The position numbers were made by a program, and so were the translations under genes. From a virus (lineage: Duplodnaviria; Caudoviricetes): DNA of 52,727 bases. Shown here piece by piece: positions 13,048 to 35,437 of this stretch. The notes below the pieces were generated by a model. That model was not told the DNA's origin, did not search any database, and saw only the letters and a program-made list of their open reading frames with translations. The stretch covers positions 1 to 52,727 of the IMG/VR virus record IMGVR_UViG_3300032050_000188; one strand, written 5' to 3'. The first letter of the stretch is position 1, and every line of letters starts with the position of its first letter.

Positions 13048-13296
13048 ATGGAAGCGACAATACTCTGGAACCTCGTCCTGACCATCCTGATCGGTGCAGT
13101 GGCGTTCTTCATGTCCTCCAAATTCCGGGAGCTTGACCGCATATCTATCCTGCTCAACCGCACGCGGGAAGAGATTGCCCGTGACCACATCACGCGGTCT
13201 GAGTTCCGGCAAGACATGAAAAGTCTCTTTGAGCGTTTTGATGCCATAGAGAAAAAATTGGACAATCTGCGTGAGCGCAAGCGGGAGATAGACTGA
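13048..13296 (+). CDS. Membrane-anchored coiled-coil protein
   Basis: N-terminal hydrophobic helix, LLNRTREEIARD, coiled-coil tail. Confidence 0.65.
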   Translation: MEATILWNLVLTILIGAVAFFMSSKFRELDRISILLNRTREEIARDHITRSEFRQDMKSLFERFDAIEKKLDNLRERKREID

Positions 13297-13643
13297 TGGC
13301 CTCTCAAAAAGAAGATGGTGATATTCAAGAAATACACCCAACAGAAGTTTATAAACCTCCCGTTAAAAAACTGGATGCGAAAGAACGTGCGCTAAAAGTT
13401 TTGAAAAATTGGAGGGGCTCTCCAACAGCATTTAACCCTGCAGTTGGCGCTTACACAGATATGGCGTATGAGGCATATAAAAAGTTAACCGGCAATGCTC
13501 CGCTGGAAGACTTGTCGGATAAAGTGCGAAGGGCAGCAAAAGACACCCCCAAAATGGCAACAGAAAAATTTGCTGCTGGTGGTAAAGTCCGCCAAATTGA
13601 CGGCTGCGCACAGCGCGGAAAGACCAAAGGGCGGGTGGTGTAG
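13296..13643 (+). CDS. Hypothetical protein with C-terminal FAAGG / GKTKG tail
   Basis: AT-rich body; ends FAAGGKVRQIDGCAQRGKTKGRVV. Confidence 0.65.
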   Translation: MASQKEDGDIQEIHPTEVYKPPVKKLDAKERALKVLKNWRGSPTAFNPAVGAYTDMAYEAYKKLTGNAPLEDLSDKVRRAAKDTPKMATEKFAAGGKVRQIDGCAQRGKTKGRVV

Positions 13644-13954
13644 TGCCCCTTAAGTCGGAAGCTCAAAAACGGTTCATGTATGCCTCTCTCGCTGGCAAGA
13701 CGGATGTCCCGCCTAGCGTAGCGAAGAAGTTTGTCGGGCCAGAGGCCCATAAGGAGTCTGAGATGGCTGAGTCGAAGAAGATGATCGGTAAGGAGTTGGC
13801 CTTCATGAAAAAGAAGGGCGCTCCGAAGTCCATGATCAAGCACGAGATGGCCGAGGCCAAAGGTAAGGGTTACGCCCGAGGCGGCGGCATCGAGTCCAAG
13901 GGTAAGACCAAGGGCAAGATGGTCAAGATGGCAATGGGCGGCAAAGCCTGCTAA
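13643..13954 (+). CDS. Small basic protein with YARGG and MAMGG motifs
   Basis: GTG start overlapping the upstream stop; internal SD AAGGAG before ATG 13763. Confidence 0.65.
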   Translation: MPLKSEAQKRFMYASLAGKTDVPPSVAKKFVGPEAHKESEMAESKKMIGKELAFMKKKGAPKSMIKHEMAEAKGKGYARGGGIESKGKTKGKMVKMAMGGKAC

Positions 13955-13964
13955 GAGGTAAATC

Positions 13965-14186
13965 ATGGACTACGCAGCCGAAGCTAAACGAGAAGTTGGT
14001 TCTCTCAGGAAGCGCTACCCCGAGAAGCCGCCTGCAGGCATCCGTGCCGAGTTGGACGCCATGAAGCAGGAAAAGGCCAATGAGGCTGGCATGAAGGTCC
14101 ATGAAGGCCGCAAGCTCGCCAAAGGCGGCTCCGTCAAAGGCGGCGGCTGTGAGCAGCGTGGCCTGAGAAAGTGCAAGGTGATGTAA
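13965..14186 (+). CDS. Small basic protein with LAKGG motif
   Basis: SD GAGG; ends LAKGGSVKGGGCEQRGLRKCKVM. Confidence 0.65.
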   Translation: MDYAAEAKREVGSLRKRYPEKPPAGIRAELDAMKQEKANEAGMKVHEGRKLAKGGSVKGGGCEQRGLRKCKVM

Positions 14187-14426
14187 GTGCGTGCATCACG
14201 CGGTATGGGTGCCATCCGCCCGGAACTCAAAGGCAAGGTCAAGAAGCGCCGTGACAACACCGACTTTACCGAGTACGCCGAGGGCGGCGAAGTTGGCCTC
14301 TACGCCAACATCAATGCCAAGCGCAAACGGATTGCCGCAGGATCGGGCGAAACCATGCGCAAGCCGGGTGCTCCCGGCGCTCCTACTGCCAAAGCGTTTA
14401 AGCGTTCCGCAATGACGGCGAAGTGA
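14187..14426 (+). CDS. Small basic protein with YAEGG motif
   Basis: MRASRGMGAI start, GLYANINAKRKRI motif. Confidence 0.65.
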   Translation: MRASRGMGAIRPELKGKVKKRRDNTDFTEYAEGGEVGLYANINAKRKRIAAGSGETMRKPGAPGAPTAKAFKRSAMTAK

Positions 14427-14427
14427 A

Positions 14428-15123
14428 ATGACAACCTCCGGCACCACTACATTTGACATGGATCTCAACGAGTACGTTGAGGAAGCCTTTGAGCGCTGTG
14501 GTGCGGAGCTTCGCACGGGTTATGACCTGAAGACCGCACGGCGGTCCATGAACCTGCTTTTTACAGACTGGGCCAACCGGGGGATTAACCTTTGGACGGT
14601 AGAGCAAGGATCGCAAGTCTTGACACCCGGTACAAATACGTACACCCTTCCTGCCGACACGGTGGATCTTCTTGAGCATGTGATCCGCACAGGTGCGGGG
14701 AACGTCTCCACGCAGACAGACCTGACTATCACGCGCATCTCGGTCTCCACCTACTCCAGCATCCCGAACAAACTGCAACAGGCAAGGCCGATCCAGATCT
14801 GGATCAACCGCCAAGCGCCCGCGCCGCAGTTCACGGTGTGGCCCACGCCCGACAACTCGCAGACCTACACGCTGGTCTACTGGCGGCTGCGCCGCATACA
14901 GGACGCTGGTGCCGGTGGCACGTACACGCAGGACATCCCGTTCCGCTTCTTGAATGCTTTGGTCGCCGGTCTTGCATACTACCTGTCCATGAAGATCCCA
15001 GGCGCGATGGAAAGAATGCAGGTATTGAAGGCTCAATATGACGAAGCTTGGGACCTTGCCTCGACGGAAGACCGTGAGAAGGCTGCGGTGCGGTTTGTGC
15101 CGCGCCAGATGTTTATAAGCTGA
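14428..15123 (+). CDS. Head-tail adaptor / head completion protein
   Basis: EEAFERCG, ARRSMNLLF.DWANRGINLWT, WPTPD, PFRF...LVAGLAYYL. Confidence 0.65.
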   Translation: MTTSGTTTFDMDLNEYVEEAFERCGAELRTGYDLKTARRSMNLLFTDWANRGINLWTVEQGSQVLTPGTNTYTLPADTVDLLEHVIRTGAGNVSTQTDLTITRISVSTYSSIPNKLQQARPIQIWINRQAPAPQFTVWPTPDNSQTYTLVYWRLRRIQDAGAGGTYTQDIPFRFLNALVAGLAYYLSMKIPGAMERMQVLKAQYDEAWDLASTEDREKAAVRFVPRQMFIS

Positions 15124-15131
15124 GGTTCGTT

Positions 15132-15770
15132 ATGCTCGACTTAAACATCAACGAAATAAAAAGACCTAATGGAGCTATTGGCTTCCAAGGTGTAGATGCG
15201 GAAAACATTCGTAGTATTTTAAAAAATGTAGCAAAGCTGCCCATACCAGAAAATGCTTCAATGCGTGAGATGGTTGATATTTTTAAACAAAACCCAGAAG
15301 CACAAAATAAAGTAAGAAGTTTAATGCTCAAACAACCTTTAGAAGGTTTTGAGCTACCTGATGGAACAATCTCCATAAAAGACGGGCATCATCGTGCGTT
15401 TTTGTTAAACCAAGTTGGCGACAAGACGTTGCCTGCAAGTATAAAAGACTACACCGGCCCATCAAAACCAAAAGCCGTTGGCAAAGCAGGTATTGCTGCA
15501 GCCCTAGCCGGTGGCGCTGGTGCGGCCAGCGCAGGAGACCTTCGCCGTGCAGCGGGGGATGTGGCCGAATCGTTTTTGCCGCTGGGGGTAACACCATCTA
15601 CACTGGCCCCAGGTACACTGACGCCCGAGCAACGCGCCGCTTCTGATGCGGCGACACAACGTAAACGCCAGCAGGAAGAAGCAGCCAAGATGAAGGCCCA
15701 GGCGTTGCTGCGTACAGGTGTGCCAATGCCAGATGAGTACCGCCAAGGCGGTCGGGTCAGGATGATCTGA
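15132..15770 (+). CDS. ParB/Srx-like domain protein with C-terminal YRQGG motif
   Basis: I.IKDGHHRA motif in the AT-rich N-half; GC-rich Ala/Gly-rich C-half ending YRQGGRVRMI. Confidence 0.55.
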   Translation: MLDLNINEIKRPNGAIGFQGVDAENIRSILKNVAKLPIPENASMREMVDIFKQNPEAQNKVRSLMLKQPLEGFELPDGTISIKDGHHRAFLLNQVGDKTLPASIKDYTGPSKPKAVGKAGIAAALAGGAGAASAGDLRRAAGDVAESFLPLGVTPSTLAPGTLTPEQRAASDAATQRKRQQEEAAKMKAQALLRTGVPMPDEYRQGGRVRMI

Positions 15771-15771
15771 C

Positions 15772-16164
15772 ATGGCTAACAGGTTTGCAAACGGCGCAAA
15801 GGCATTCGGTTTCTGCGATGTCTGTGGGTTTCGTTTCGACCTGAAGAAGCTGAAAAATTTGGTCGTCAAGACAAAAAACACACAAATCCGTTCGTGTCCT
15901 TCGTGCTGGAGTCCTGATCATCCACAACTCCAATTGGGCATGTATGAAATTTCGGACCCCCAGGCCATCCGAGATCCTCGTCCAGACACAAACACTTGGT
16001 ACGCCTCGGGCCAAACGGCTATCGGGTCTATTGGTGAAGGCAGCAGAGTGATTGAGTGGGGCTGGGCACCTGTAGGCGGGTCCAGCGGGTTTGATGCGCC
16101 CTTGACGCCAAACGCCTTGGCACCACAGGGTTTAGTAGGTACAGTCACGGTGTCCGTGACCTAA
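15772..16164 (+). CDS. Zinc-binding phage protein
   Basis: CDVCG...CPSCW..DHPQL...DPQA.RDPRPD. Confidence 0.7.
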   Translation: MANRFANGAKAFGFCDVCGFRFDLKKLKNLVVKTKNTQIRSCPSCWSPDHPQLQLGMYEISDPQAIRDPRPDTNTWYASGQTAIGSIGEGSRVIEWGWAPVGGSSGFDAPLTPNALAPQGLVGTVTVSVT

Positions 16165-16170
16165 GGAGCG

Positions 16171-16335
16171 ATGATGAAAGATGTCCACAAGCACGAGCGT
16201 GCAATGCACCCAGGTAAGCCGCTGACCAAGTTGGCAAAGGGCGGCAAAGCCTTCAAAAAGGGCGGCCCCACCACCGATGACCGCATGCGCCTGGGCAAGA
16301 ATATGTCCCGCGCCATGAACCAGAAGACGGGGTGA
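16171..16335 (+). CDS. 54-aa basic protein with LAKGG / FKKGG motifs (not in ORF track)
   Basis: SD AAGGAG; MMKDVHKHERAMHPGKPLTKLAKGGKAFKKGGPTTDDRMRLGKNMSRAMNQKTG. Confidence 0.7.
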   Translation: MMKDVHKHERAMHPGKPLTKLAKGGKAFKKGGPTTDDRMRLGKNMSRAMNQKTG

Positions 16336-16338
16336 GCC

Positions 16339-16527
16339 ATGAAGACCAAGAAACTTGCTCCTGCCAAGTCCAGCTATCCCCAAGGTGCTGAGAACCCCCG
16401 TGACCTGTGCATGGTGGTTGGGAACTCCTCCAAGGAGGTTGCTCCCCCGGCCAAAACCTCTGGCGTGAAGATGCGCGGTGCTGGTGCGGCTACCCGTGGC
16501 TTCATGGCCCGTGGGCCGATGGCGTGA
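16339..16527 (+). CDS. Small basic protein
   Basis: Ends KTSGVKMRGAGAATRGFMARGPMA. Confidence 0.65.
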   Translation: MKTKKLAPAKSSYPQGAENPRDLCMVVGNSSKEVAPPAKTSGVKMRGAGAATRGFMARGPMA

Positions 16528-16535
16528 GGTAAACA

Positions 16536-17189
16536 GTGGCGCTCTCGTACTCGCAGCTTCAAGCTGCCGTGGAAGATTATTGCGAAAATACGTTTTCCGC
16601 GACAGATTTCGGGGTTATGACCGGGCTGGCTGAGCAACGTATTTACAACGCTGTTCAGTTGCCGATCCTTCGTAAGAACGTCTTGGGCACTTTGACAATT
16701 GGTAACCAATACCTCTCAGCGCCACCGGACTTCTTGTCGGTTTTTAGTCTCGCGGTTGTAAACGGCTCCAGTTACGAGTTCCTTCTGAACAAAGATGTGA
16801 ACTTTATTCGGGAGTCGTTTCCAAATCCTGCATCTACCGGAGTGCCAAAGTATTACGCGCTGTTTGGACCGAATTCTGTGACCCCCACGGAGCAGACGTT
16901 TATTCTTGGCCCAACGCCAAGCGCAGCGCTGGTAACGGATCTGAACTATTTTGGATACCCCGAGAGCATCGTGACAGCCACCAATACATGGCTTGGCGAC
17001 AATTTTGACAGCGTGCTGTTCAACGCGGTACTGGTCGAAGCTGCCCGGTTCATGAAGCAAGAGCCTGACATCGTGGCCGAGACGGACAAGCAGTACGTGC
17101 AATCCCTGACGCTGCTGAAGAACCTGGGTGATGGTAAAAATAGGATGGATGCGTATCGTAGCGGGCAGGTAAGAACGCAGGTGATCTGA
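16536..17189 (+). CDS. Tail adaptor / tail tubular protein A-like
   Basis: Y..L...V.DY.E, AEQRIYN, G.PKYYA.F, LGPTP, TWLGDN, D.YRSG. Confidence 0.6.
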   Translation: MALSYSQLQAAVEDYCENTFSATDFGVMTGLAEQRIYNAVQLPILRKNVLGTLTIGNQYLSAPPDFLSVFSLAVVNGSSYEFLLNKDVNFIRESFPNPASTGVPKYYALFGPNSVTPTEQTFILGPTPSAALVTDLNYFGYPESIVTATNTWLGDNFDSVLFNAVLVEAARFMKQEPDIVAETDKQYVQSLTLLKNLGDGKNRMDAYRSGQVRTQVI

Positions 17190-17190
17190 T

Positions 17191-17613
17191 ATGGCTATTG
17201 TTCAAACGCAGACCACCAGCTTCAAGGCGGAACTATTCACAGGCACGCATGTGTTTGGGACGGACACGTTCAAACTTGCCCTGTATGCTTCAACTGCGGA
17301 CCTTGGTGCGGCCACGACGGTCTACACAACTTCCAGTGAGGTGCCCGCAAGCGGCACTTACGCGGCTGGCGGCGGGGTATTGACAGGCGTGTTGGTCTCC
17401 AGTTCTGCCACGACGGCTTGGGTGACGTTTGACAATATCTCGTTCACATCTGCCACGATCACTGCCCGTGGAGCGCTGATCTACAATTTCAGTAAAGGCA
17501 ACAAGAGTGTTGCGGTGCTGGATTTTGGCTCTGACAAAGTGGTAGCAGGCGGCACGTTTACAGTGCAGATGCCCATTGCAAACGCAAGCAACGCATTGAT
17601 TCGCATCGCATAA
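17191..17613 (+). CDS. Virion structural protein
   Basis: SFKAEL, FKLALY, Y.AGG..L, ITARGALIYN, VLDFGSDK. Confidence 0.65.
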   Translation: MAIVQTQTTSFKAELFTGTHVFGTDTFKLALYASTADLGAATTVYTTSSEVPASGTYAAGGGVLTGVLVSSSATTAWVTFDNISFTSATITARGALIYNFSKGNKSVAVLDFGSDKVVAGGTFTVQMPIANASNALIRIA

Positions 17614-17623
17614 GAGGTAAGAA

Positions 17624-18028: not shown

Positions 18029-18031
18029 GGT

Positions 18032-18685: not shown

Positions 18686-19720
18686 ATGTCGTTGCTACTG
18701 CTGTTTAGAGACAGCGGAAGCGGACCAGCGACACAGGTCCTAACTCCGGACCTGTACAACAACACCCAGACCTTTTACGGTCCAACGGTCACGCGTGGTA
18801 CGGTCACGCTGACTCCGGCGCTGTTTACAAACAGCAACAGCCTTTTCTCTGCTACGGTCAGCGCAACAAACACGTTGACCCCGGCGCTGTACACGAACAC
18901 TAACACGTTCTTTGCAGCAACGGTTTCTCAAGGCGGAGCAACTCAGACCCTTTCGCCTTCGCTGTTTACGAACAGCAATGAGTTCTTCAGCCCGACAGTA
19001 GCTCGTGGCACGGTAACGCTGCAACCGGCTCGGTACGATAACGCACAGAGCTTCTTTGTCCCCACCATTACTCGTGGCGCAGTTGCCCTTACCCCTGCAC
19101 GCTACGACAACGAACAGACCTTCTACGGCCCGACAGTAGCTCGTGGCGCTGTCACACTTACTCCCGCCCGTTACGACAACGCGCAGAGCTTCTTTTCAGC
19201 CACCTTGACGCAGGGCACGGTAACGCTCCAACCGGCTCGATACGACAACAGTCAAAGTTTCTTTGCGTCCACGGTCACGACAAGCAGCACGCTGAACCCG
19301 GTAAGGTACGACAACGAGCAGGTGTTTTTTGCCCCGGTAGTCAGTGACGCGTATATCCTGACCCCTGCAAGATTCGACAACCCGCAGGAGTTTTACGCCC
19401 CTGTAGTTGCCGACACGTACACAGTAACCCCGGAACGGTACGACAACAGCCAGAACTTCTACCCGGCAACGGTTGATGGCGGCAACGTCGTTACCATAGT
19501 TTTGACTGGCGTGCAAGCCGTTGGGCTGTTAGGATACGTAAACGTCTGGGGGCTGACCCCTGGCCCACCAATTTTGGAGTGGGATGCTGTAGAAGATGCG
19601 CAAACGCCAAACTGGGCCGCAGCGGGTACAGTTCAAACACCTGGGTGGCTCCCACCATCAACGACTCAAGTCCCCGGATGGGCGCTTGTGACAGACACGC
19701 AAAACCCCAACTGGCAATAA
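18686..19720 (+). CDS. Repeat-containing fibre-like virion protein
   Basis: 11 copies of ~22-aa L(T/Q)PA(R/L)(Y/F)xNxQxFxxxTV; C-terminal QTP.W repeats. Confidence 0.6.
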   Translation: MSLLLLFRDSGSGPATQVLTPDLYNNTQTFYGPTVTRGTVTLTPALFTNSNSLFSATVSATNTLTPALYTNTNTFFAATVSQGGATQTLSPSLFTNSNEFFSPTVARGTVTLQPARYDNAQSFFVPTITRGAVALTPARYDNEQTFYGPTVARGAVTLTPARYDNAQSFFSATLTQGTVTLQPARYDNSQSFFASTVTTSSTLNPVRYDNEQVFFAPVVSDAYILTPARFDNPQEFYAPVVADTYTVTPERYDNSQNFYPATVDGGNVVTIVLTGVQAVGLLGYVNVWGLTPGPPILEWDAVEDAQTPNWAAAGTVQTPGWLPPSTTQVPGWALVTDTQNPNWQ

Positions 19721-25597: not shown

Positions 25598-26967
25598 TGA
25601 CTATCTGGTCAACCATCGTCAAGCGCTTCAAAGCGCCGTCATTGCCTAAACCGGAAACGCAGTACGAGCGCGTTTACTTTGACAGTCTCGTCAACATTCT
25701 GCGGTTGTACTTCAACCAGCTAGACAACCTGCTGGAGCAGATCGTGGCGACAACAAACGGCGTGGTGCCTGTAAGTATTGGCGGGACGAACGTAGATGCG
25801 TTTGGCAGGGTACGTGTTAGCCAGCCCTACACGTTGTTTGACTCCCAAAACCGTTACGCTATCGACAATCAGTTCGACACCAGCACGGCTACTGGGGGTT
25901 CAACCACGTACCTGCCCAATGAAGCCTCGGTGCGGATGGATGTCACCACCTCAAGTGGCTCTGAAGTTGTAAGGCAGACTTACAGGTGCATGCCGTACCA
26001 GCCCGGTAAGGGCCTGTTGATGCTGGGCACGTTCGTGATGAACTCGCCCAAGACAGGACTCCGTCAACGGATGGGGTACTTTGGCGCTCAGAACGGCGTC
26101 TTCATCCAGCAGAACGACAGCACCGTTTCCTTCGTCCTTCGGACTTACATCTCAGGCTCCGTGAGCGATGCGCGGGCAGTCAACCAAGCCGACTGGAACG
26201 GCGACAAACTTAACGGCACTGGAGACTCAGGGTATACCCTTGATCTGACCAAAGCGCAGATTTTGTGGACGGACTTTGAGTGGCTGGGAGTCGGGTCTGT
26301 TCGGTGTGGGTTCATCATTGATGGTGAGTACATCGTCTGCCACACGTTTGAGAATGCAAACGAAGTTACTTCTGTTTACATGACCACGGCAATTCTGCCG
26401 GTGCGCTACGAGATCACCAACACCGCAGCAACGGCAAGCGCTTCGTCCATGAAGCAGATTTGTGCCTCCGTAGTTTCTGAAGGCGGCTATGAGCAGACAT
26501 CCATTGAGCACGTAGCGCGTAGAACTGCAACGCTGACCGGGATCAGTACGACCTTTGTGCCTTTGGTTTCCATCCGGCTTGCTTCTACGGCGTTAAACGC
26601 CGTGGTGCTGCCTGCCAAATTTAACGTGATGCCAACCTCAACGGGGGATGACTTTGAGGTAGTTCTGGCTAAGAACTGTACCGGGCTGACATCGGCCTCT
26701 TGGGCTGCGGTAGCAAGTGATGCAAATGTGGAGATGGATACTTCTGCCACTGCTATGACGCTGGGCACCATCGTGGATATCCAGTACGTAAAGTCCACCA
26801 ATCAGTCCAGCGGGACGATCAACCAGACTGCCGGGTACAACTGGGATCTTCAGTTGGGGTCGTCCTTGACGGGGACGAGCGATATCTATACGCTGGGCAT
26901 CCGGGTGCTGTCAGGCTCCTCTGGTGCGGCCATCGGGTCTTTGACCTTCTACGATTTGACGCAATGA
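25597..26967 (+). CDS. Tail-associated protein
   Basis: LRLYFNQLD N-terminal helix, DAFGR.RVS.P.TLFD, YQPGK, EWLGVG.VR.GF beta domain. Confidence 0.6.
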   Translation: MTIWSTIVKRFKAPSLPKPETQYERVYFDSLVNILRLYFNQLDNLLEQIVATTNGVVPVSIGGTNVDAFGRVRVSQPYTLFDSQNRYAIDNQFDTSTATGGSTTYLPNEASVRMDVTTSSGSEVVRQTYRCMPYQPGKGLLMLGTFVMNSPKTGLRQRMGYFGAQNGVFIQQNDSTVSFVLRTYISGSVSDARAVNQADWNGDKLNGTGDSGYTLDLTKAQILWTDFEWLGVGSVRCGFIIDGEYIVCHTFENANEVTSVYMTTAILPVRYEITNTAATASASSMKQICASVVSEGGYEQTSIEHVARRTATLTGISTTFVPLVSIRLASTALNAVVLPAKFNVMPTSTGDDFEVVLAKNCTGLTSASWAAVASDANVEMDTSATAMTLGTIVDIQYVKSTNQSSGTINQTAGYNWDLQLGSSLTGTSDIYTLGIRVLSGSSGAAIGSLTFYDLTQ

Positions 26968-29900
26968 TCCCACGCCTTCAAACCGAGTACGAAGTAGAAG
27001 ACGCAGCGGACGAAGACGAACTGCGTCGGATTGTGCGCGGCGCTGCGCCTGCGCCTAGCCCCGCTCCGGCTCCGGCCCCTGCTGCCTCCACCACAGACTG
27101 GATGTCAAACACCCCCACGGGTTGGGGCGGGTTTACTGGCGAGGAAAAGATACAGTATTTCAACCAACATGGGATAACGCCTGAGCAACTAGCGCCTTAC
27201 GCCACCCCTGAAGAGATCCAGTATTTCTATGACCACATGGGGTACACGGTAGGGAAGCCTACTACTGCCCCTGCTCCAACTGTTGCTCCTGCTCCTCCTT
27301 TAACGCCATTTGACGTTTTTAAGCAGGATCTGTTTACAACAGAAATGTTGCCAACTGGAGCATCTCCGGAAACTGGAGCAGATCAGTTTCAGGCTGGCGC
27401 AAGAAGTTACCAACTAGGAAATCAAACCGTTGTCCCTGACGATCAAGGTGGCTACGTTGTTAACACGCCGACTGCGCAGGATGGCATTTACAAAGCCGAA
27501 CGCTTTGATGCTTCTGGAAAGAAAATTGGCGAGTTCATCAATGACGCTCGCAATACGGACCTGCAAGATTTAGCTCAGTTAGCCACATTTGCCCTTGGCG
27601 TTGGCCCATTAGGTGGGATGCTCGGCAGCACTGTTGCTGGAGCACTAGGTATACCTGTAGCCACTGCAACATCAGCAGGGCTGACTGCCGCCCAACTAGC
27701 GGCGCTTGGAACTACAGTTGGCAGCGCAGGACTTGGTATCCTGCAGGGCCAAGACCCACTGGATGTCCTTCAAAACGCAATCAGGGCAGGTGCTACAGCG
27801 TTCCTGCCCAGCCAAGTCTCGTCTTTCATCCCATCGACAGGCACAGCAGCGCTTGATGCTGCGCTTAAGACTGCCACTGAAGCAGGTGTACGTACTGCTG
27901 TAAACGGCGGGGATGTTGAGAGCGCAGTTATTGGTTCGTTGGTTAACAGCGGTGTCGGAGCTGCTACGGGGGCGACAGGACTCCCACCAGAACTTGTTAA
28001 CGCGGCAATTAATGTTGCCAAGTCTGGCGGCGATCCGCAGAAAATATTTAACGCGGTAGTTAGCGCTGGCCCTGCAATTCAAGGTCTTCAGAACTACTAC
28101 AGCAAGACAGACACAGGTGACGAAACTGCCCGCCTTACGGCCCGGTATGGTACTGCATTTGATAATTTTAATTCATATCTAAAACAAGTAGCTGCAAACG
28201 CAGAGCCGTTTGAACCAACGCAATTTGCATCCCCAGAACAAGCAAGTATCTTTGACAATTTTGTAGAACAGTTTGCAAATGGGGCCGGAAGAGCGCCTGA
28301 CGCTGACGAAACTACGTTGTTATTGGCACTAGCCAACCCTGATTTAGCCAACAAGTTAAATACAACAGTTACAGATACTGGCACATCTGCATTACATGAA
28401 CTATTAAATAAAAAACCGCAAGCAGCATCATTGCTACAAACAATACTAGAAAGAACCCCAGGACAGGGTGATTTATTAGAGTTGTTAAAAAAACCAGTTC
28501 AATCTGGTGTGGCACAAACACCAGCATTGCCGCAGGCGGCAATGACAGCAAGAGATTTATTTAGGGGTGCCGGAAGTGAATACACCAATGTTTACCCTGG
28601 TGCTTTATTAACTTCAGGTACTGGTGGTCAAGGATGGTTTGCGGGTCCAGGAGCAGCTACGTTTGCGTCAGAAATGATGGGTCTAATGTCAGATCCAACC
28701 CTGACAGCAGAAGAGCGCGCATTTTTTACTGACCAGCTACGCCAAGCAGCGATGAAACCGGAGCTTGTCAATCAAGTACCGGGGTTGGCAACGTATAACC
28801 CATACATTTCGGATACGTCTAGGACACGAGAAGGTACATCTGCTACAAGCGCAGGCGGGGGGAAAGATGGCGGAGGTAAAGATAATACTGGTAGCGACGG
28901 GGGTGTAACCACACTGCCACCTTTTGTTACCGCTGGCACAAGAATTGCAAACCCTGCTGCCATTGATGCATTAATTGACGTTATTGGGGGAAGCTCTGTA
29001 GATCCTATTACCGGGTCTGTAATCCCAGATGGCGGGAATCAATTAGATACAGCCACAATAGTTGGGCAAGATGAAGATGGAAACCCTATAACCACAGGTG
29101 ATATTTTGGGGGGTTCCGCGTCTATACCTACGTCAAGCATTAGGACTGCCGAAAATGTAACAACCCCCGATTTTGATTTGGACACAAGCCAAATAATTAA
29201 CGACTACGTAAACGACATTTTGGGTGGGCAAGCTGTTTCAGATATTCCTTCAGTTACTCCCTCAGGTACGCCAGCGTTAGATGCTTACGAAGTGTTGTGG
29301 ACTAATCCAGTCACCGGGGAAAATGTAACAAAAGAAGACCTTGGAGTAACTGCTACGGTAAGCCCCTCAGTCACGCCATCGGTTGCCCCTGCCGCTGCAC
29401 CCGCCACGGGGACAATTTTGTCAACGGACCCCACGCAGGGCACGGCGCTGGTGGTTGATCCCAGCGGGAACACCAAAGTTGTTGATGTCTCACCCGACTC
29501 CAAGCCCGGAGATACCGTAAATATTGGCGCTGCACCAACGCCTGCACCAACGCCTGCGGCTCCTGCTCCTGCTCCCGCGTTGAATCTTTCCACGCCGATT
29601 GCCACTGATCCCGCAACTGGCGAAGTGCTTACGCTTGGCGATGTACTGCCTTCTCCGCCCCCTGCTCCAAGCCCCGCACCAAGCCCCGCACCAAGCCCTG
29701 CTCCTGCTACAACAACGGCATTGGTAACTGCGCCAGCACCTGCTCCGGCACCTAGCCCCGCTCCAAGTCCTGCTCCAAGCCCTGCTCCGGCACCCGCAGT
29801 TGACCTTACAACTCCTGTCGCAGTAGATCCAATAACAGGCGAGACGCTGACACTTGCGGATGTAACGCCTTCGACGCCAGCTCCGGCACCCGCAGAAGTA

Positions 29901-30962
29901 AAGACTGAAGTTGCTGCGCCAAGTCCTGCTCCTGCCGAAGCTCCCGCTCCTAGTCCAGCACCAGCGCCCTCAGAAGCACCTGCGCCCGCTCCAGCCCCCG
30001 CTAAAGTTACCGCTCCTGCTGAGGCACCGGCTCCAAGTCCTGCTTCAACGGAAGCGCCTGCACCAGCGCCGAGTACAACTGAGACCAAGACGGAAGCCCC
30101 GGCACCTGCCGCGCCATCTCCCGCGCCTGCCCCAACGACGACTGAAACCAAAACAGAAGCACCCGCTCCAGCCCCCACAACCACGGAAACCAAAACGGAA
30201 GCGCCGGCTCCCGCCCCGGCAACTACGGAAACTAGGACTGAGGCACCTGCGCCTGCTCCGAGCACAACGGAAACAAAGACCGAGGCACCTGCTCCGGCAC
30301 CTACGACCACTGAAATTAAGACTGAGGCACCCGCTCCTGCTCCGACGACAACTGAGACTAAAACAGAGGCTCCTGCACCTGCCCCAAGCACAACGGAAAC
30401 TAAGACCGAAGCACCTGCTCCGGCACCTAGTCCTGCACCGGCTCCTGCAGAAGTAACTACCGCAGCGCCGGCTCCTGCACCAGCACCCGCGCCAACAACT
30501 CAAGCTCCTACACCTGCGCCTCCTCCGGCTCAACCGCCTGCACAACCTCCAGCGCAGCCACCGTCTCAGCCCCCCGCACAACCTCCCGCGACCACACCCC
30601 CTGGAGAGGACGTTCTGCCGCCTGTGACAGAGGAAGAGTTGCGCGAGATTGTTTCCGGGCCTCCACCGGCACCGCCTGCGCCAACACCTGCGCCCCCAGC
30701 ACCAACGCCTGCGCCTCCCGCACCTACGCCGGCACCTCCTGCGCCGACAGTTAAACCTCCAGCGGTTAAACCAACTAGCCCTGCGCCGTCTCCTGCGGCA
30801 CAATTGGCTATGCCTAAGATGACGCCAGAGTTGGCTAACTTCATTCAAGAACTGATGCAGACGGACGAAGCAGATCTGCTCCAGTTGACCACCGCGCTCA
30901 AAGCAGAGCGTGAAGAAAAACGTGAAGGCTTGCGTGGCAAGCTGAAATCTAGAAAGGCTTGA
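26964..30962 (+). CDS. Large Pro/Ala/Thr-rich putative internal virion protein
   Basis: 1332 aa; hydrophobic Gly/Ala helices; long PAPAP and TTETKTEAPAPA repeats. Confidence 0.55.
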   Translation: MIPRLQTEYEVEDAADEDELRRIVRGAAPAPSPAPAPAPAASTTDWMSNTPTGWGGFTGEEKIQYFNQHGITPEQLAPYATPEEIQYFYDHMGYTVGKPTTAPAPTVAPAPPLTPFDVFKQDLFTTEMLPTGASPETGADQFQAGARSYQLGNQTVVPDDQGGYVVNTPTAQDGIYKAERFDASGKKIGEFINDARNTDLQDLAQLATFALGVGPLGGMLGSTVAGALGIPVATATSAGLTAAQLAALGTTVGSAGLGILQGQDPLDVLQNAIRAGATAFLPSQVSSFIPSTGTAALDAALKTATEAGVRTAVNGGDVESAVIGSLVNSGVGAATGATGLPPELVNAAINVAKSGGDPQKIFNAVVSAGPAIQGLQNYYSKTDTGDETARLTARYGTAFDNFNSYLKQVAANAEPFEPTQFASPEQASIFDNFVEQFANGAGRAPDADETTLLLALANPDLANKLNTTVTDTGTSALHELLNKKPQAASLLQTILERTPGQGDLLELLKKPVQSGVAQTPALPQAAMTARDLFRGAGSEYTNVYPGALLTSGTGGQGWFAGPGAATFASEMMGLMSDPTLTAEERAFFTDQLRQAAMKPELVNQVPGLATYNPYISDTSRTREGTSATSAGGGKDGGGKDNTGSDGGVTTLPPFVTAGTRIANPAAIDALIDVIGGSSVDPITGSVIPDGGNQLDTATIVGQDEDGNPITTGDILGGSASIPTSSIRTAENVTTPDFDLDTSQIINDYVNDILGGQAVSDIPSVTPSGTPALDAYEVLWTNPVTGENVTKEDLGVTATVSPSVTPSVAPAAAPATGTILSTDPTQGTALVVDPSGNTKVVDVSPDSKPGDTVNIGAAPTPAPTPAAPAPAPALNLSTPIATDPATGEVLTLGDVLPSPPPAPSPAPSPAPSPAPATTTALVTAPAPAPAPSPAPSPAPSPAPAPAVDLTTPVAVDPITGETLTLADVTPSTPAPAPAEVKTEVAAPSPAPAEAPAPSPAPAPSEAPAPAPAPAKVTAPAEAPAPSPASTEAPAPAPSTTETKTEAPAPAAPSPAPAPTTTETKTEAPAPAPTTTETKTEAPAPAPATTETRTEAPAPAPSTTETKTEAPAPAPTTTEIKTEAPAPAPTTTETKTEAPAPAPSTTETKTEAPAPAPSPAPAPAEVTTAAPAPAPAPAPTTQAPTPAPPPAQPPAQPPAQPPSQPPAQPPATTPPGEDVLPPVTEEELREIVSGPPPAPPAPTPAPPAPTPAPPAPTPAPPAPTVKPPAVKPTSPAPSPAAQLAMPKMTPELANFIQELMQTDEADLLQLTTALKAEREEKREGLRGKLKSRKA
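29655..30795 (+). repeat. Coding tandem repeats (APSP, APAPxTTETKTE, PPAQ, PPAPT units)
   Basis: About eight 12-aa APAPxTTETKTE units at ~30055-30420, flanked by shorter Pro-rich repeats. Confidence 0.9.
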
Positions 30963-33865
30963 TCATGTCTGACGAGTTGGACCGCCTGGGTGAAGTTACT
31001 GGCCCCGCAACAATGACAGGGACCGAATATCAAGATTATTTGTCGGCGGCCCCAAACCTTTCTGGCCTCACCAGCCTGCTAACTCCGTTCAAAGGCATCT
31101 TTGACCGCTTGAAGTCTGGCAACACCACGGCCAATGATGTAAACGCGGCGCTAGGTGTACTTGGTTTGATCATGCCCAGTCTGAACAGACCTCAGACCGC
31201 CGGGTGGAAAGGCTCCATCGACATGAACAAGCAGTTCACCCGAACGCCGATTGCTCAGCCGGAGTACAAACCGTACGCTCAGAGTGCTTCGCCTGTGATG
31301 GGGCGACAGTTCTTTACTTCCTCGTATAGCGCTGCCCCCGCTGCGCCTCCTGCTGCCGGTGGTGCGTTGCCTCCACCCGCTACGCCTCCTGCTACAAATC
31401 CTGATCTGGACAGTCCATCTTCTACTGGCGGTAAGGCCAAAGGTGGTATTGCATCGCTGCGTAAATTTGAAGGTGGCGGCGATGTTGGCCAACCAAAGGC
31501 AGGCCCTCAGTTCTATGACTACCACGTTGGCGCAAACGCCAGAATGGTGGATGTGCCCGGTATTGAAAAGCCGGTGCTGATGTTCTTTGACATTCCTAAC
31601 AACCGAGTTGTTGTCAGCGACGAAGGGTACTGGAACCCCAACGCTCCAATTGGGGAAGACCTAAACAAAGCCGTTGCTTGGGCGCGTGATCAAGGACTCC
31701 AGGCGGGCGTGGTTGTGTCGCCATATTCTTGGGATGCGTTTGGTAAAGACGCAATTGGCGAAGACCTTGAGTCCGGCTCCGCGCATCCTCGCTCCATGCC
31801 CGGTGCATCCTTTGACCAGTTGAAGGATTACATGAACGCTGCGGATTTTGTTGTGACTGATCCATATGTTGTCAGCGCACAAACCGCTACGCCGGGAGTT
31901 CAAGAGAAACTGATCCAGATCACCGGTATGATCGGTGATCATGCGCAGGAAACTAATAAGCCCGCATGGCTGGTGCTTGGTGGATCAACCGCTCCTGAGG
32001 GCACCGATCCAAACCTGATTTACAACTACACAGACAATTTGCTTGCCAATACGGCGAACAAGTTTAATCAAGTGTCTGTGTTTGAAGGGACGCGAGATCT
32101 ACAGCCGGGAGCATATTTGCCAACGTGGGATTATTTGCAAGCGTCAAATGTTCTTGCAAAACACGGCATTCAACCAACAGGCACTTACGGACAGGCGTAT
32201 GAAAACCAAACCTCAGTTCCTGCTACGCCCTATGTTGGGTATGACGTAGGCAGCATAAAAGTTGGATCAGTGCAGGACTTTTTGCAAGGTGCAGGAACAT
32301 CATCACAAGCGCATTTCCAGCCTGGAGTGCATCTTGGTAACACGCCTGTTAATCAACCCGCCGCTCTCACTGGTCTTGCAGGGTCGCTTCCTTCCGGGTG
32401 GTCGGGCTACGATGCCGGCCAAAAGATTGATTGGTACAACCAAAACCAAGTGACGCCTGATCAGTTGCTCGGTGCTGGAGTGCAGCAAGATGAGCTTGAT
32501 TGGATGGGCACACAAGGCTATCTTGGCGGCCAGCAGCAACCTTCGCAACCAATAGCGCAACCTGCGCAACCTATGGCTCAGCCTATGGCTCAGCAAACTG
32601 CTGCGCAACCGGCATCTCAACCACAGACCCCTCAAACTCCGCAGCGATTCCCCATGCCTAATTTTCAACTTGGACAAGGGGAAGAAGTTGAAGCCGCCCA
32701 AGGTGGCCTGATGGGTCTTGCCCGAGGTGGCAAGTTGCCACCTAGGTATCTCCGAGGCCAAACTGATGGCATGGCAGACAAGATCCCGAGTAACATCGAC
32801 GGTGTGCAGCCTGCCAAATTGAGCCACGGTGAGTTCGTGATTCCCGCTGATGTGGTCTCACATCTGGGTAATGGCAACTCTGATGCTGGCGCAAAGGTTC
32901 TCTACGGCATGATGGATCGTGTGCGTAAAGCTCGGACAGGGACCAAGAAGCAAGGCCGTCAGATCAACCCGGAAAAATTTACACCGGGCGGCATCGCTGG
33001 TTACGCTGGTGGTGGCGCGGTTGCTTTCAATGCTGGTGGTGCTGCCCCCGCACCGCCTACGGCCCCGCTTGGAACTTCCACTGAGACCAACATCTCTTCA
33101 TGGGCAGGCCCGTATGTGGGTGACATGCTCAGTAAGACATCTGCTCTTACTAACACACCGTATCAAGCCTACCAAGGACCGATGGTCGCCGGGACGGCTC
33201 CTCTGCAAAGCAAGGTGTTCAGCGGCCTAGAAGGTTTGAACTTCCCCGGCCAACTGGGGCAGTCGTTCTCAGCACAAGGTGCTTATCAACTTCCAAGCAT
33301 GACTCCGGGTGGTATGACCGGGCAAGCAACTGGTCCGACCGGGGTTGCCTCTCAGTACATGAATCCGTACCTGAGTGCAGTGCTGACCCCTCAACTGGAT
33401 GAACTGCGTCGGCAAAGCCAGATCACGCAGATGGGGACGGCTGGAAAACTGGCTCAGGCTGGTGCGTTTGGCGGATCCCGTCAAGCCATCATGGATGCTG
33501 AGACGCAACGTAATCTTCTGCAGGAGCAGAACAAAGCTATCGGTACTGGGTATGCAAACGCCTATGACCGGGCGATGGGGCAGTTCAATGTGGAGCAAGG
33601 CCAAGCCAAGACCCTTGCTGACATGATGGCCGGAGCGGGTCAGCAGCAGCGTGGCATTGAGCAAGAAGGTATCACTGCTCTTCAAAGGCAGTACGAGACG
33701 GAGTTGCTTGATCCATACACCAAGCTGCGGTTCCAGAAGGAAATGCTTCAGGGTCTGCCTGTTGCAACGGCTGCGACGACGGCGAATACGAGTCAGTTGG
33801 GTGAAGTTAGGGGTGGTTTGTCAGACTTGGTAAAGAGTCTTGAGGCACTGGGCCTGAAGGGTTGA
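30959..33865 (+). CDS. Internal / ejection protein with several xxxGG motifs and an inserted globular domain
   Basis: G.TDGMADKIP, A.LSHGEFVIPADVVSHLGNG, YMNPY, GAFGGSR motifs; start may be ATG 30965. Confidence 0.65.
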   Translation: MIMSDELDRLGEVTGPATMTGTEYQDYLSAAPNLSGLTSLLTPFKGIFDRLKSGNTTANDVNAALGVLGLIMPSLNRPQTAGWKGSIDMNKQFTRTPIAQPEYKPYAQSASPVMGRQFFTSSYSAAPAAPPAAGGALPPPATPPATNPDLDSPSSTGGKAKGGIASLRKFEGGGDVGQPKAGPQFYDYHVGANARMVDVPGIEKPVLMFFDIPNNRVVVSDEGYWNPNAPIGEDLNKAVAWARDQGLQAGVVVSPYSWDAFGKDAIGEDLESGSAHPRSMPGASFDQLKDYMNAADFVVTDPYVVSAQTATPGVQEKLIQITGMIGDHAQETNKPAWLVLGGSTAPEGTDPNLIYNYTDNLLANTANKFNQVSVFEGTRDLQPGAYLPTWDYLQASNVLAKHGIQPTGTYGQAYENQTSVPATPYVGYDVGSIKVGSVQDFLQGAGTSSQAHFQPGVHLGNTPVNQPAALTGLAGSLPSGWSGYDAGQKIDWYNQNQVTPDQLLGAGVQQDELDWMGTQGYLGGQQQPSQPIAQPAQPMAQPMAQQTAAQPASQPQTPQTPQRFPMPNFQLGQGEEVEAAQGGLMGLARGGKLPPRYLRGQTDGMADKIPSNIDGVQPAKLSHGEFVIPADVVSHLGNGNSDAGAKVLYGMMDRVRKARTGTKKQGRQINPEKFTPGGIAGYAGGGAVAFNAGGAAPAPPTAPLGTSTETNISSWAGPYVGDMLSKTSALTNTPYQAYQGPMVAGTAPLQSKVFSGLEGLNFPGQLGQSFSAQGAYQLPSMTPGGMTGQATGPTGVASQYMNPYLSAVLTPQLDELRRQSQITQMGTAGKLAQAGAFGGSRQAIMDAETQRNLLQEQNKAIGTGYANAYDRAMGQFNVEQGQAKTLADMMAGAGQQQRGIEQEGITALQRQYETELLDPYTKLRFQKEMLQGLPVATAATTANTSQLGEVRGGLSDLVKSLEALGLKG

Positions 33866-33868
33866 AAT

Positions 33869-35437
33869 ATGTACGCACAACAATCTAGAACCGGGGTACC
33901 AGAACTTGATGCTGTTCTTGCAACAGCACAGATGGTCACACCCGAACAGACGCCCACTGTTGCTGCACAAGTAGCTCAGGCCGCGCAACAGAAATTATCC
34001 CCTCCAACAACACCCCCCGGCATCGGTGCTCTGATGCCCGGTGTTAGGCAGCAAGCCGTAAACGCGGCGCAGGCTGCGCAGCCCGTAACACAGGCTCAAA
34101 TGCAACAAGCACTGCAACAAAGCCAAATGGCGCAGCAAAGCCAAGGCGTGGCTGGGTTGCCTGCTGACAACATGCGCACGTTCACTGCGGCGCAGGGTGG
34201 TGTTGTTGGTTATGCGGGGAAAGAAGGGTCATATGTTGATCCGCAGTTCCCTTCTGTGTACGAAAATTACGTTGAGCCGACACGCGAAGCAAGGACAGGC
34301 CGAGAAGAAGATGAGTTGTTTGGGCCGATGAAGTCTGAAAGACAACGGGTAATTGAAGCCGTGGCTGAAGAACTTTTGGGGCCAATGACAAAGGAGAGAC
34401 TGGCTGCTGCTCCTCAGAGGCAAACGCAGCAAAGAAGCGAAGCGACTCCTGCGCCCCGTCCGCCAGCACCTCGCCCACCGGCACCTCGTCCTCCCGCTCC
34501 ACCAGCGGCACCGTCAGCGCCTCAAGGAGGCATTGCACAGCTTGCTGCACGCCCAACATATGACACGGCGGGTATCGCCGTTGCTGGTGCGCCTTACATG
34601 ACAGCAGGAGAAGGTGATGTCAACCGACTTCGTGAAGCAGAAGGTAAACGTGCTGAGTTTGAAAAGACACTGCCTGACCTGAGTGCCAAAGGGATCGAAG
34701 CGCTACGTCAACGTATGGCAGATGTTGAATCGGCGGAAGCGTCAAGAAAAGAAAGTCTTGGGTTAGACCGTGTAATCCAACAACTTTTGGGCGGGATGCA
34801 AGGTGCTGGCGGCGCGGCGCGTGCAGACATTCAGTTTATGAATGCTCAAAAAGCCGCAGCGGATGCCTTTAGTCAAGCAAGACTTGAAAATCAACGGGCA
34901 CAACTACTGCTTGAAAAGGCCCAACAAGAGCGGCAACTTGGTAGGCTCGACCGTGCGATTGCTCTTGAGAAGGAAGCCTCCGCTCTCATGGAGAAGGCCC
35001 GTGACAACGCACTCAAGGCGCAGGAAATTCGACAAAGAAGCGCAGGGGCTCAGTATGAAGGTGCGGTGAAATTGCGCGGCCAAGACATCACGGCACAGAC
35101 CGCTGCGGAAGACCGTGCGAATGCTTTGAAGATTGCAAATATCCGTAATACAGCAGGGGAAGCGAAAGGTGCTCTCACTCCTCGGGATATCGCTCGACTC
35201 CGTGCACAAGCTGAAAAAGATGTGGACGCACAACTGGGGAAAGATCCCAGGTACGTATCGATGAAAGTGCGTGACCCCGCCAACGCGGAAACGTACAGGA
35301 CTAGAATGATCGACGAGCGGTTGAAGCGGGTGCTGGCTGAAGAAGGGTATGGTGCCGCTGCTTCCGCACCCCCACCTGCTGCAGGGGTTTCTCCCGAACT
35401 TCTTAGCCAGTTCAAAGTTCGTCCTGTAGGACAGTAA
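33869..35437 (+). CDS. Internal / ejection protein (helical)
   Basis: 522 aa, Gln/Ala-rich coiled coil, AAQGGVVGYA motif. Confidence 0.6.
   Translation: MYAQQSRTGVPELDAVLATAQMVTPEQTPTVAAQVAQAAQQKLSPPTTPPGIGALMPGVRQQAVNAAQAAQPVTQAQMQQALQQSQMAQQSQGVAGLPADNMRTFTAAQGGVVGYAGKEGSYVDPQFPSVYENYVEPTREARTGREEDELFGPMKSERQRVIEAVAEELLGPMTKERLAAAPQRQTQQRSEATPAPRPPAPRPPAPRPPAPPAAPSAPQGGIAQLAARPTYDTAGIAVAGAPYMTAGEGDVNRLREAEGKRAEFEKTLPDLSAKGIEALRQRMADVESAEASRKESLGLDRVIQQLLGGMQGAGGAARADIQFMNAQKAAADAFSQARLENQRAQLLLEKAQQERQLGRLDRAIALEKEASALMEKARDNALKAQEIRQRSAGAQYEGAVKLRGQDITAQTAAEDRANALKIANIRNTAGEAKGALTPRDIARLRAQAEKDVDAQLGKDPRYVSMKVRDPANAETYRTRMIDERLKRVLAEEGYGAAASAPPPAAGVSPELLSQFKVRPVGQ

Follow-up and report, generated by a model that had tools for sequence, protein, structure and literature searches.

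The window analysed here, the whole 52,727-base stretch of IMG/VR virus record IMGVR_UViG_3300032050_000188 (Duplodnaviria; Caudoviricetes), is a podophage genome whose late proteins carry a recurrent phi-x-x-Gly-Gly motif (phi..GG, phi being a hydrophobic residue), and in several of these proteins the motif stands at the edge of short conserved end-modules that are kept while the rest of the chain changes. In our leading, though tentative, interpretation these modules are docking pieces of small proteins that would be carried in the virion and ejected from it, working like the C-terminal loop of T7 gp7.3. An earlier inspection of the letters alone (the sequence-only reading) had listed 16 copies of the motif in eight proteins and taken them for one portable tag. 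All 16 copies were recovered, in eight open reading frames (ORFs) on the + strand, which are named below by their first position.

13569, + strand: FAAGGKV, in ORF 13296-13643
13871 and 13928, + strand: YARGGGI and MAMGGKA, in ORF 13643-13954
14115, + strand: LAKGGSV, in ORF 13965-14186
14274, + strand: YAEGGEV, in ORF 14187-14426
15738, + strand: YRQGGRV, in ORF 15132-15770
16231-16266, + strand: LAKGG and FKKGG, in the 54-aa ORF 16171-16335
30959-33865, + strand: ORF with seven copies
33869-35437, + strand: ORF with one copy

The 54-aa ORF was missed at a cut-off of 60 aa and recovered at a minimum of 20 aa.

Enrichment of the motif in eight late proteins

Enrichment was assessed using 2000 within-protein shuffles of the 53 window proteins. 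The loose phi..GG pattern was only weakly enriched (52 observed versus 37.9 expected, a count reached in 20 of 2000 shuffles) and GG alone occurred 169 times versus 141 expected. A sharper pattern, [FYLM][ARKTE].GG, was found 21 times versus 7.0 expected (0/2000 shuffles), a count that is inflated because the pattern was defined after the hits had been seen. The excess of the sharper pattern was confined to the eight named proteins, with 8 matches versus 0.47 expected in the six small ones (0/2000) and 5 versus 0.91 in the 30959 and 33869 proteins (4/2000), and there was no excess in the other 33 late proteins (6 versus 4.7; 676/2000) or in the 12 early proteins (2 versus 0.94; 506/2000). A lack of enrichment over the Gly-rich background had been named as a refutation of the sequence-only reading; within the window enrichment holds for the sharper pattern but is weak for the loose one. 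In an unbiased word count, YA.GG occurred 5 times versus 0.55 expected, ranking 2 of 14 among words of the same shape present in at least five proteins, and A.GG occurred 31 times versus 16.7 (rank 17 of 837); the strongest words of the window were the Ala-Pro (AP) repeats of a 1332-aa protein and not the GG motif. Given these counts, the window alone lends the motif moderate support; what is decisive comes from relatives.

A small tandem family with one C-terminal module

On their alignments, the genes at 13296, 13643 and 13965 are tandem paralogues. The eight proteins, which had been described as otherwise dissimilar, do represent several families, but these three share a single C-terminal module.

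13296-13643, + strand: small basic protein, family member 1 (by alignment), 115 aa, pI 9.6
13569-13640, + strand: C-terminal module of the 13296 protein, FAAGGKV...GCAQRGKTKGRVV, then stop
13643-13954, + strand: small basic protein, family variant, 103 aa, pI 10.0, with a conserved N-terminal piece and then the module
13871-13951, + strand: module of the 13643 protein, YARGGGIESKGKTKGKMV, then KMAMGGKAC, then stop
13965-14186, + strand: small basic protein, family member (by alignment), 73 aa, pI 9.8
14115-14183, + strand: two-Cys form of the module in the 13965 protein, LAKGGSVKGGGCEQRGLRKCKVM, then stop

The shared module of ~25 residues reads YAKGG..DGCAQRGKTKGR.V, with the consensus K-[KG]-Y-A-K-G-G-[SV]-[VT]-R-[AG]-D-G-C-A-Q-R-G-K-T-K-G-R-x-V followed by the end of the protein; its subtypes include two-Cys, GHTKG, QRGKTKG and KM..GGK.C forms. 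The module includes the second motif, G.[AE]..G.[TR]K, that the sequence-only reading had seen behind some copies (GCAQRGKTK, GCEQRGLRK), and the placing of the motif near C-termini or domain borders was borne out in that it lies at the edge of conserved end-modules. Throughout the family alignments the N-terminal part varies in both length and sequence and the last ~25 residues are constant.

For comparison, 80 related loci were retrieved via the adaptor protein (73-100% identity), and among these BLAST homologues of the 13296, 13643 and 13965 proteins were found in 36, 58 and 32 loci, respectively. A pattern scan of the same loci detected 108 ORFs with the module (105 distinct, 67-334 aa) in 57 of the 80, with one to four per locus, and a profile of the last 40 residues matched at least 1985 database proteins at E <= 0.01 (8000 candidates scored). 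The best 120 of these matches are 71-351 aa long, none has a Pfam family, and their source names are just 'hypothetical protein' apart from one 'rubrerythrin'. Likewise, a Pfam scan of eight long family members revealed no families, and a PDB sequence search with the module profile gave no matches.

Combining the ORFs from the loci with the database matches that bear the module gave a set of 227 proteins. The module forms the very end of the protein in 201 of these, and 1-11 residues come after it in the remaining 26, in most cases a KM..GGK.C ending as in the 13643 protein, whose homologues keep K..GG..G..KGKTKGK.VKM..GGK.C (cons80 of 30 aligned). Their N-terminal parts, 220 of them distinct, fell into 44 single-linkage BLAST clusters, are rich in A/K/G/R/E/P and poor in W/C/F/I, and carry a net charge of +0.062 per residue; the mean net charge of the module is +5.1 over 25 residues. 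The small proteins of the window have pI values of 9.6-10.8 and the ESM Atlas model of the 13296 protein has a mean pLDDT of 0.43; the chains of this family are basic and are predicted to be disordered. The number of phi..GG units per family protein ranges from 0 to 7, with one (95/227) and two (76/227) being the commonest, and the upstream units recur with a period of ~7-8 residues; in two close relatives (L002 and L003) units are duplicated. Residues before the GG are specific, with Y at -3 (0.68), A at -2 (0.82) and K at -1 (0.79), and the motif is therefore not just a hinge.

At the DNA level, the invariant G at -13 is encoded by GGC in 52, GGT in 20, GGA in 2 and GGG in 4 of 78 distinct DNA versions of the last 16 codons, and over these codons there are 28519 differences at third positions versus 15519 and 16654 at first and second positions. 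DNA repeats are weak, the best being 35 nt that are 86% alike (13924-13958 versus 16227-16261). Because synonymous codons have varied and repeats are weak, we regard the motif as a protein feature and not a nucleic-acid signal. A conserved DNA or RNA element was ruled out by the same weak, short repeats and many synonymous codons, as was the use of GG codons as internal Shine-Dalgarno sites, with GGAGG-like sequences in only 4 of 200 codon pairs; promoter- and terminator-like sites were not above shuffles.

The family genes lie among tightly packed late genes, just upstream and downstream of two SU10_adaptor genes.

14428-15123, + strand: adaptor protein (SU10_adaptor; PF24175, E 4e-13), whose homologue in Phage DSL-LC04 is annotated adaptor
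16536-17189, + strand: second SU10_adaptor-like protein (PF24175, E 6.9e-15)

Genes of the small family are a short way upstream of the 14428 adaptor gene, and ORFs 16171 and 16339 stand likewise before the 16536 adaptor gene. The two adaptor genes are themselves paralogous, and small basic Gly-rich ORFs precede each.

A related end on the 15132 protein

A second family carries the motif at its extreme C-terminus, in a gene slot directly after the first adaptor gene.

15132-15770, + strand: 212-aa protein in the slot after the adaptor, with a variable N-terminal domain (DGHHR motif) and a conserved tail
~15480 to 15767, + strand: conserved tail of ~100 residues, by alignment
15735-15767, + strand: terminal motif EYRQGGRVRMI, then stop

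Homologues of the 15132 protein occur in just 2 of the 80 loci, and 157 relatives were found in databases, most of which share just the C-terminal 36-48% of the window protein. An alignment of 19 sequences showed G206, G207, R208, R210 and I212 to be nearly invariant and the best-kept residues of all. Among the best 120 of the 157 relatives, phi..GG plus 2-8 residues forms the end of 71, and a GG falls inside the final 27 residues in 115. Their N-terminal parts are of the window's own type in 4 proteins, of a large unnamed type in 85 and of a third type in 3, and in three of ten proteins scanned (P0252, P0276, P0290) the tail follows a Kinase-PolyVal domain (E 4.8e-10 to 3e-9; 37.5-40.1 bits versus a cut-off of 27), from which the window's own N-terminal domain differs. 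By sequence comparison, at least four or five N-terminal domains that are unrelated to one another carry the tail. Searching it against 1.84 billion cluster representatives gave 31 clusters at E <= 0.001, with a Pfam family named in one, again Kinase-PolyVal.

Conserved positions of the tail include Y at -3 (0.86), V at +3 (0.97) and R at +4 (0.96), and with Y at -3, GG, V at +3 and R at +4 the 15132 end matches the local pattern of the small family. Moreover, small-family genes that occupy the same slot in other loci encode E-Y-K-R-G-G-K-V-K followed by the basic end-piece, with the ending ..[YK][KR]GG.VK...G.G[CI]..RG.T.G..[VI] (for example EYKRGGKVKAHRGDGIAQRGRTKGRMI). This match, together with EYKRGGKVK in the same slot, provides the best evidence for one short unit common to different proteins. 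Portability, as proposed in the sequence-only reading, is thus supported by both families, in 44 clusters of N-terminal parts and in unrelated domains on the 15132 tail. The further idea of swappable effectors is supported by Kinase-PolyVal on that tail but not by the small family, whose N-terminal parts resemble basic disordered chains and not effectors.

The slot between the adaptor gene and the conserved 15772 gene exceeds 150 nt in 21 of 79 loci; its gene is of the 15132 type in 2 of them and belongs to the small family in 4, and in about 11 the gene end (HNH-type) suggests a candidate homing endonuclease. The slot (15123-15772) is an insertion hot spot with at least three kinds of extra gene, ahead of a conserved 130-aa Cys-rich protein. 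One 470-aa relative of the tail, P0366, shows by eye an acetyltransferase-like N-terminus, a 15132-type tail region, M-A-K-G-G and a stretch like the gene-A domain described below, with two more M-A-x-G-G units, and if this reading holds it appears to link the two classes of module. The AlphaFold2 model of the 15132 protein has a mean pLDDT of 53.9, and a fold search with it returned nothing at E <= 0.001. Its N-terminus, a candidate ParB-like nuclease domain, bears the DGHHR motif, with 0 Pfam matches, and in that search with the weak model Spo0J ranked 14 and a ParB N-domain ranked 36 (E 2.2 and 3.1), neither of which is significant.

Other small ORFs

14187-14426, + strand: 79-aa basic protein with a constant leader and a swappable C-terminal module
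14187-14294, + strand: constant N-terminal leader of 36 residues, RGMG...RRDNTDFTEYAEGGEV, ending in YAEGGEV
14295-14423, + strand: swappable C-terminal module (phrog_16028)
16171-16335, + strand: 54-aa basic ORF, pI 10.8, LAKGGKAFKKGGPT; homologues in 63/80 loci
16339-16527, + strand: 62-aa basic ORF ending in KTSGVKMRGAGAATRGFMARGPMA, then stop; homologues in 71/80 loci
12780-13046, + strand: 88-aa DUF6321 protein, a small basic module (PF19846, E 1.2e-18; 67.9 bits versus a cut-off of 28.5)

BLAST homologues of the 14187 protein are present in 57 of the 80 loci. All 54 distinct homologues keep the leader, after which comes a phrog_16028-like module in 19, an NYTKP..QWSARKAQ module in 28 and something else in 7; a Pfam scan of two NYTKP-type members found no families. 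Between ORFs 13965-14186 and 14187-14426, which share a reading frame, there is only one TAA with a GTG start right behind it (14184-14189), and read-through of this TAA would join the two small proteins.

The 16171 ORF keeps the pattern FKKGGPT..DR...GKN..RAMNQK.G, and its LAKGGKA unit is an insertion, present in the window and in 5 of 24 other aligned rows. The 16339 ORF is related in style and has no phi..GG. The 12780-13046 protein aligns with the end of phrog_3477 (928 positions) and with that of phrog_727 (450 positions), and by PHROG matches both the DUF6321 and the phrog_16028 modules are end parts of far larger proteins elsewhere among phages.

The 968-aa and 522-aa proteins

30959-33865, + strand: 968-aa protein, a fusion of 'gene A' and 'gene B' by comparison of related loci
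32693-32986, + strand: conserved A domain, opening with AAQGGLMGLARGG
32978-33040, + strand: Gly-rich fusion linker FTPGGIAGYAGGGAVAFNAGG, after which the B part runs to 33862
33869-35437, + strand: 522-aa protein, in which AAQGGVVGYAG (34187-34219) closes a conserved N-terminal region

The last ~270 residues of the 968-aa protein are encoded by a separate gene B in 33 of 40 related loci, and 32 of these 33 unfused loci also have gene A as a gene of its own upstream, its end falling at the point that reads ..KF-TPGG in the window; the remaining loci have the fused form (5) or a distant relation only (2). Because A and B are separate in relatives, FTPGG, YAGGG and FNAGG at 32978-33040 are a clade-specific fusion linker. 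AAQGG at 32693 opens a ~100-residue end-domain of gene A that reads [MYF]-A-x-G-G-[IL] in distant relatives, and its local pattern is a different one, with A at -3 and L/M at +2/+3. The idea of one tag in all 16 copies therefore does not extend to the linker or to this domain. A search with the gene-A domain gave at least 8000 proteins at E <= 0.001 (8000 of 8000 candidates); the domain sits after variable N-terminal parts, with SGNH/GDSL hydrolase families in 4 of the best 120 matches, among which there were no functional names. The AlphaFold2 model of residues 568-968 has a mean pLDDT of 60.2, too weak for a fold search, with motif segments below 50 and a B part of long helices, and a PDB sequence search with the C-terminal half gave no matches. 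For the 522-aa protein, MAEGGVVG[FY]A is kept in four homologous ORFs (three distinct sequences), which diverge after it.

Genome setting

Late genes occupy the + strand from 2 to 41324 and replication genes the - strand from 41614 on. Pfam families recognised in the window include terminase, capsid protein (6846-7754), GIY-YIG endonuclease, phage lysozyme, the two SU10_adaptor proteins and LPD38, and on the replication side a family A DNA polymerase, an SNF2 helicase and a DUF927 protein. By tblastn with the portal protein, the nearest cultured relatives (33-44% identical) are Synechococcus phage MinM2, Planktothrix phage Pag-Yong1, Phage DSL-LC04, Pelagibacter phages HTVC023P and HTVC027P, Roseobacter phages CRP-901 and CRP-902, and Caulobacter phage RW. 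Many uncultured viral contigs belong to this group, with at least 598 stretches bearing a relative of the adaptor and at least 598 bearing a relative of the nozzle. Among cultured relatives the module profile matched Pag-Yong1 (E 4.1e-7) and, weakly, DSL-LC04 (E 0.041), and tblastn with the 13296 protein against cultured phages found just Pag-Yong1, MinM2 and Pra-JY27, all at E 0.8. In Pag-Yong1 and in MinM2 a 308-aa family member is encoded close before the adaptor region.

35439-41324, + strand: 1961-aa large polyvalent-type protein with an LPD38 domain (PF18857, E 4.2e-36)

The 1961-aa protein is likely an ejected protein. It contains an H-E-x-x-x-H stretch (approx. 38100-38140) that is metalloprotease-like in look and matches no peptidase family; a zincin protease was ruled out, as the motif is H-E-x-x-x-H and the protein has no HExxH. 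Gene 4654-5544, ahead of the gene for the 302-aa capsid protein, matches phrog_28737, an entry without function, and is a putative scaffold gene by its position and helical C-terminus; the helical segment lies at the C-terminal end and has no GG motif. The gene next before the putative scaffold gene, on the side of the portal gene, is GroES-like (4239-4643; phrog_3188, E 5e-7); a likeness of the motif to the GroES mobile loop was considered and found no support. A GIY-YIG/NUMOD3 homing endonuclease gene (7849-8715) lies between the capsid gene and gene 8824-9318, the latter being syntenic with a DSL-LC04 gene annotated 'cement protein'. The products of neighbouring genes 9616-11124 and 11136-12368 share a near-identical stretch of ~47 residues (from residue 84 and residue 19, respectively) and have similar ends, and are probably paralogous fibre or spike proteins. 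ORF 18686-19720 contains a 69-nt tandem repeat (3.1 copies, 18983-19195) whose units include ARYDN, the word RYDN occurring 6 times versus 0.05 expected, and the 1332-aa protein (ORF 26964-30962) has, at 29667-30739, long Ala-Pro-rich tracts and a 42-nt tandem repeat in 7 copies (14 aa, TTETKTEAPAPAP-like).

Docking and its alternatives

The end-pieces look address-like because they are kept while their partners change, stand at the extreme end of the chain, and are encoded by genes that flank the two adaptor genes. In the mechanism we propose, phi-A-x-G-G would be the leading edge of short conserved 'address' modules, borne by several protein families whose genes surround the two adaptor genes or belong to the ejection-protein block. 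With its constant end each protein would dock on some symmetric and conserved structure in the particle, be it the portal-adaptor-nozzle channel or an internal core; its basic variable chain would run alongside the DNA, and at infection it would exit together with the DNA.

23648-25597, + strand: nozzle protein, candidate docking partner (PDB 8zkk 'nozzle gp16', E 3.3e-6; phrog_3287)

A stronger form of the proposal, which is possible but doubtful, is that an abundant, mostly uncultured podophage lineage, seen mainly in metagenome contigs, loads its particles with an exchangeable arsenal for delivery with the DNA, by means of an address peptide (Y-[AR]-x-G-G-x-V-[RK] plus a basic end) that is mostly C-terminal and does not depend on a protease. 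Small proteins that evolve fast would make up such an arsenal together with solo effector domains, for example a kinase or a ParB-like domain, and the whole would be a mirror-image counterpart of the capsid targeting sequence (CTS) and internal proteins of T4.

Several observations weigh against docking. The constant part of the 14187 protein lies at the N-terminus, which a single docking rule for all families would not cover, and the 16 copies are themselves mixed, those of the 968-aa protein having another local pattern or belonging to the fusion linker. The two largest likely internal proteins (1332 and 1961 aa) gave no [FYLM][ARKTE].GG match in the pattern listing as read. The N-termini of the small family are hypervariable only in a relative sense, because 111 of the 220 fall in one cluster, the largest. 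Since the module profile found no match in HTVC023P, CRP-901 or Caulobacter phage RW, the module is a lineage trait that is not needed by all relatives with this portal type. Aligning the module profile A1 with T7 gp6.7 (DUF5476) and gp7.3 using hhalign showed no homology (probability ~0.1%). A complex prediction of nozzle, adaptor and 40-residue module, with an alignment for each and without controls, scored 0.00, which counts neither for nor against docking. The presence of the module proteins in the particle is itself inferred, and so basic an end-piece could act on DNA alone, without a docking site.

The idea of action on DNA alone, in which a short, strongly basic peptide behind a disordered basic spacer binds or condenses DNA by itself and the proteins would coat or neutralise packaged or entering DNA, is unlikely. 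The charges of the module and of the N-terminal parts (+5.1 per 25 residues and +0.062 per residue), the pI of 9.6-10.8, the predicted disorder and a repeat-like pattern of up to 7 phi..GG units per protein would all suit it. However, Y, A, D-G-C and the exact C-terminal spacing are strongly conserved, more than charge binding would call for, the 15132 tail on folded enzyme-like domains closes with the same motif, and Pfam at E <= 1 gave no known DNA-binding family. We also rate as unlikely that the motif has no function of its own and is a flexible, slippage-prone Gly-Gly joint for module shuffling and gene fusion, accumulating at borders as a by-product. The motif does stand at the module swap of the 14187 family (19, 28 and 7 of 54) and in the fusion linker of the 968-aa protein, units are duplicated in L002 and L003, a 35-nt stretch with 86% likeness links 13924-13958 and 16227-16261, and motif segments are modelled below 50 pLDDT. 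A hinge, though, would not preserve Y (0.68-0.86), A or R at -2 and V at +3, nor would it hold the next 16 residues through many synonymous codons or make G206, G207, R208, R210 and I212 the best-kept residues of the 15132 family.

Protease processing, with a cut after GG freeing basic end-peptides or variable parts, had been offered in the sequence-only reading next to the tag, and we consider it very unlikely. Adenovirus cleavage sites have the form (M/I/L)XGG-X, African swine fever virus polyproteins are cut at Gly-Gly-X sites, and adenovirus core-protein precursors are small and basic; here too a hydrophobic residue stands at a fixed distance ahead of GG, the proteins are small and basic, and the end-piece past GG is ~16-20 residues long. 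That reading had also recognised no prohead protease, and indeed Pfam showed no protease family in 50 of the 53 window proteins (three small early ORFs lay outside the scan), which weakens the cleavage idea; a host protease, or one beyond recognition by Pfam, possibly acts at GG. In addition, the hydrophobic residue occupies P5, as Y at -3 relative to the first G, and not the P4 of the adenovirus rule, and a separate putative scaffold gene lies ahead of the capsid gene, a layout that would usually go without a prohead protease. The stretch past GG is kept as one unit all the way to the stop codon, which suits a retained module. That the motif is simply the output of a Gly- and Ala-rich proteome is extremely unlikely. 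Although GG is common (169 versus 141), the loose pattern only reaches 52 versus 37.9, there is no excess in the 33 late and 12 early proteins, and the motif lies outside the top words of the window, chance is contradicted by the 8 matches versus 0.47 in the six small proteins (0/2000 shuffles) and by the comparative data, with column-by-column conservation across 57 loci and at least 1985 database proteins.

How podophages select small or internal particle proteins is understood for few model phages only. Here one short end-piece is common to a large unnamed family (at least 1985 database proteins, with a Pfam family in 0 of the best 120), and a related end-piece is joined to effector-type domains. 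If the modules are address labels, they would explain how delivered proteins are exchanged among these phages, mark a new pool of candidate anti-defence proteins and provide a simple cargo-loading tag for podophage capsids; if they are only DNA-binding tails or hinges, they would still define a new, widespread family of phage late proteins. A limited literature search, made without supplementary files, found no mention of DUF6321, none of the matches to the motif strings that were examined concerned phages, and the covered parts of the Pam1 paper held nothing on small proteins.

Comparison with known systems

PF10685, which we take to be the Pfam KGG repeat of stress-induced proteins with K-G-G in basic, Gly-rich, disordered small proteins, had no match at E <= 1 in ten proteins scanned. 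In phage P22 the C-terminal coat-binding domain of the scaffolding protein is basic, forms a helix-turn-helix and is sufficient to carry cargo into the procapsid; the basic C-terminal piece is alike, but the P22 domain is a helix-turn-helix and the putative scaffold of the window (4654-5544) lacks the motif.

The polyvalent proteins offer a parallel for the effector side. In the sections covered of PMC5512222, Kinase-PolyVal, LPD38 and DdrB-type ParB domains are placed among proteins delivered with phage DNA, and polyvalent-protein domains are described in late-gene contexts and argued to be delivered on invasion. Kinase-PolyVal likewise occurs on 15132-type tails in relatives and LPD38 in the 1961-aa neighbour, whereas the domains here stand solo with a common tail and are not strung into a giant protein, and those sections contain no Gly-Gly address motif.

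The T4 CTS is an N-terminal peptide that is removed by the prohead protease. According to the parts of PMC3012670 that we cover, the internal proteins of T4 are diverse and have only the CTS in common, which serves just head entry and with which foreign proteins can be loaded. A short conserved terminal peptide on diverse, internal proteins is the likeness to our modules. The sequences are dissimilar, however, and here the constant piece is C-terminal in two families (201 of the 227 small-family proteins, and the 15132 family), with only the 14187 leader at an N-terminus, and Pfam found no prohead protease among the 50 window proteins scanned.

In T7, as described in the covered parts of PMC11784390, a C-terminal loop of gp7.3 (residues 84-98) is held by two subunits of the nozzle where this meets the adaptor; its K84 and K85 contact the end of the DNA, and the basic, unresolved N-terminus of gp7.3 encircles the DNA. 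Loops of gp6.7 form bridges among the portal barrel, gp14 and gp15, and in the ejection model both proteins leave the particle at infection (PMC11784390). Both are small (99 and 88 aa for gp7.3 and gp6.7), have Gly-Gly motifs beside basic residues (ARAGGKKSL, VAGGLAGLAGG, EFGGSS and SAFGGKK occur in their sequences) and are encoded among head and tail genes, as are the small proteins of the window. The T7 proteins are products of single genes, unlike the tandem family with one common end-piece described here, and their place in the particle is shown in T7 and inferred here. Because the family profile shows no homology to gp6.7 or gp7.3, the likeness is one of design and not of membership.

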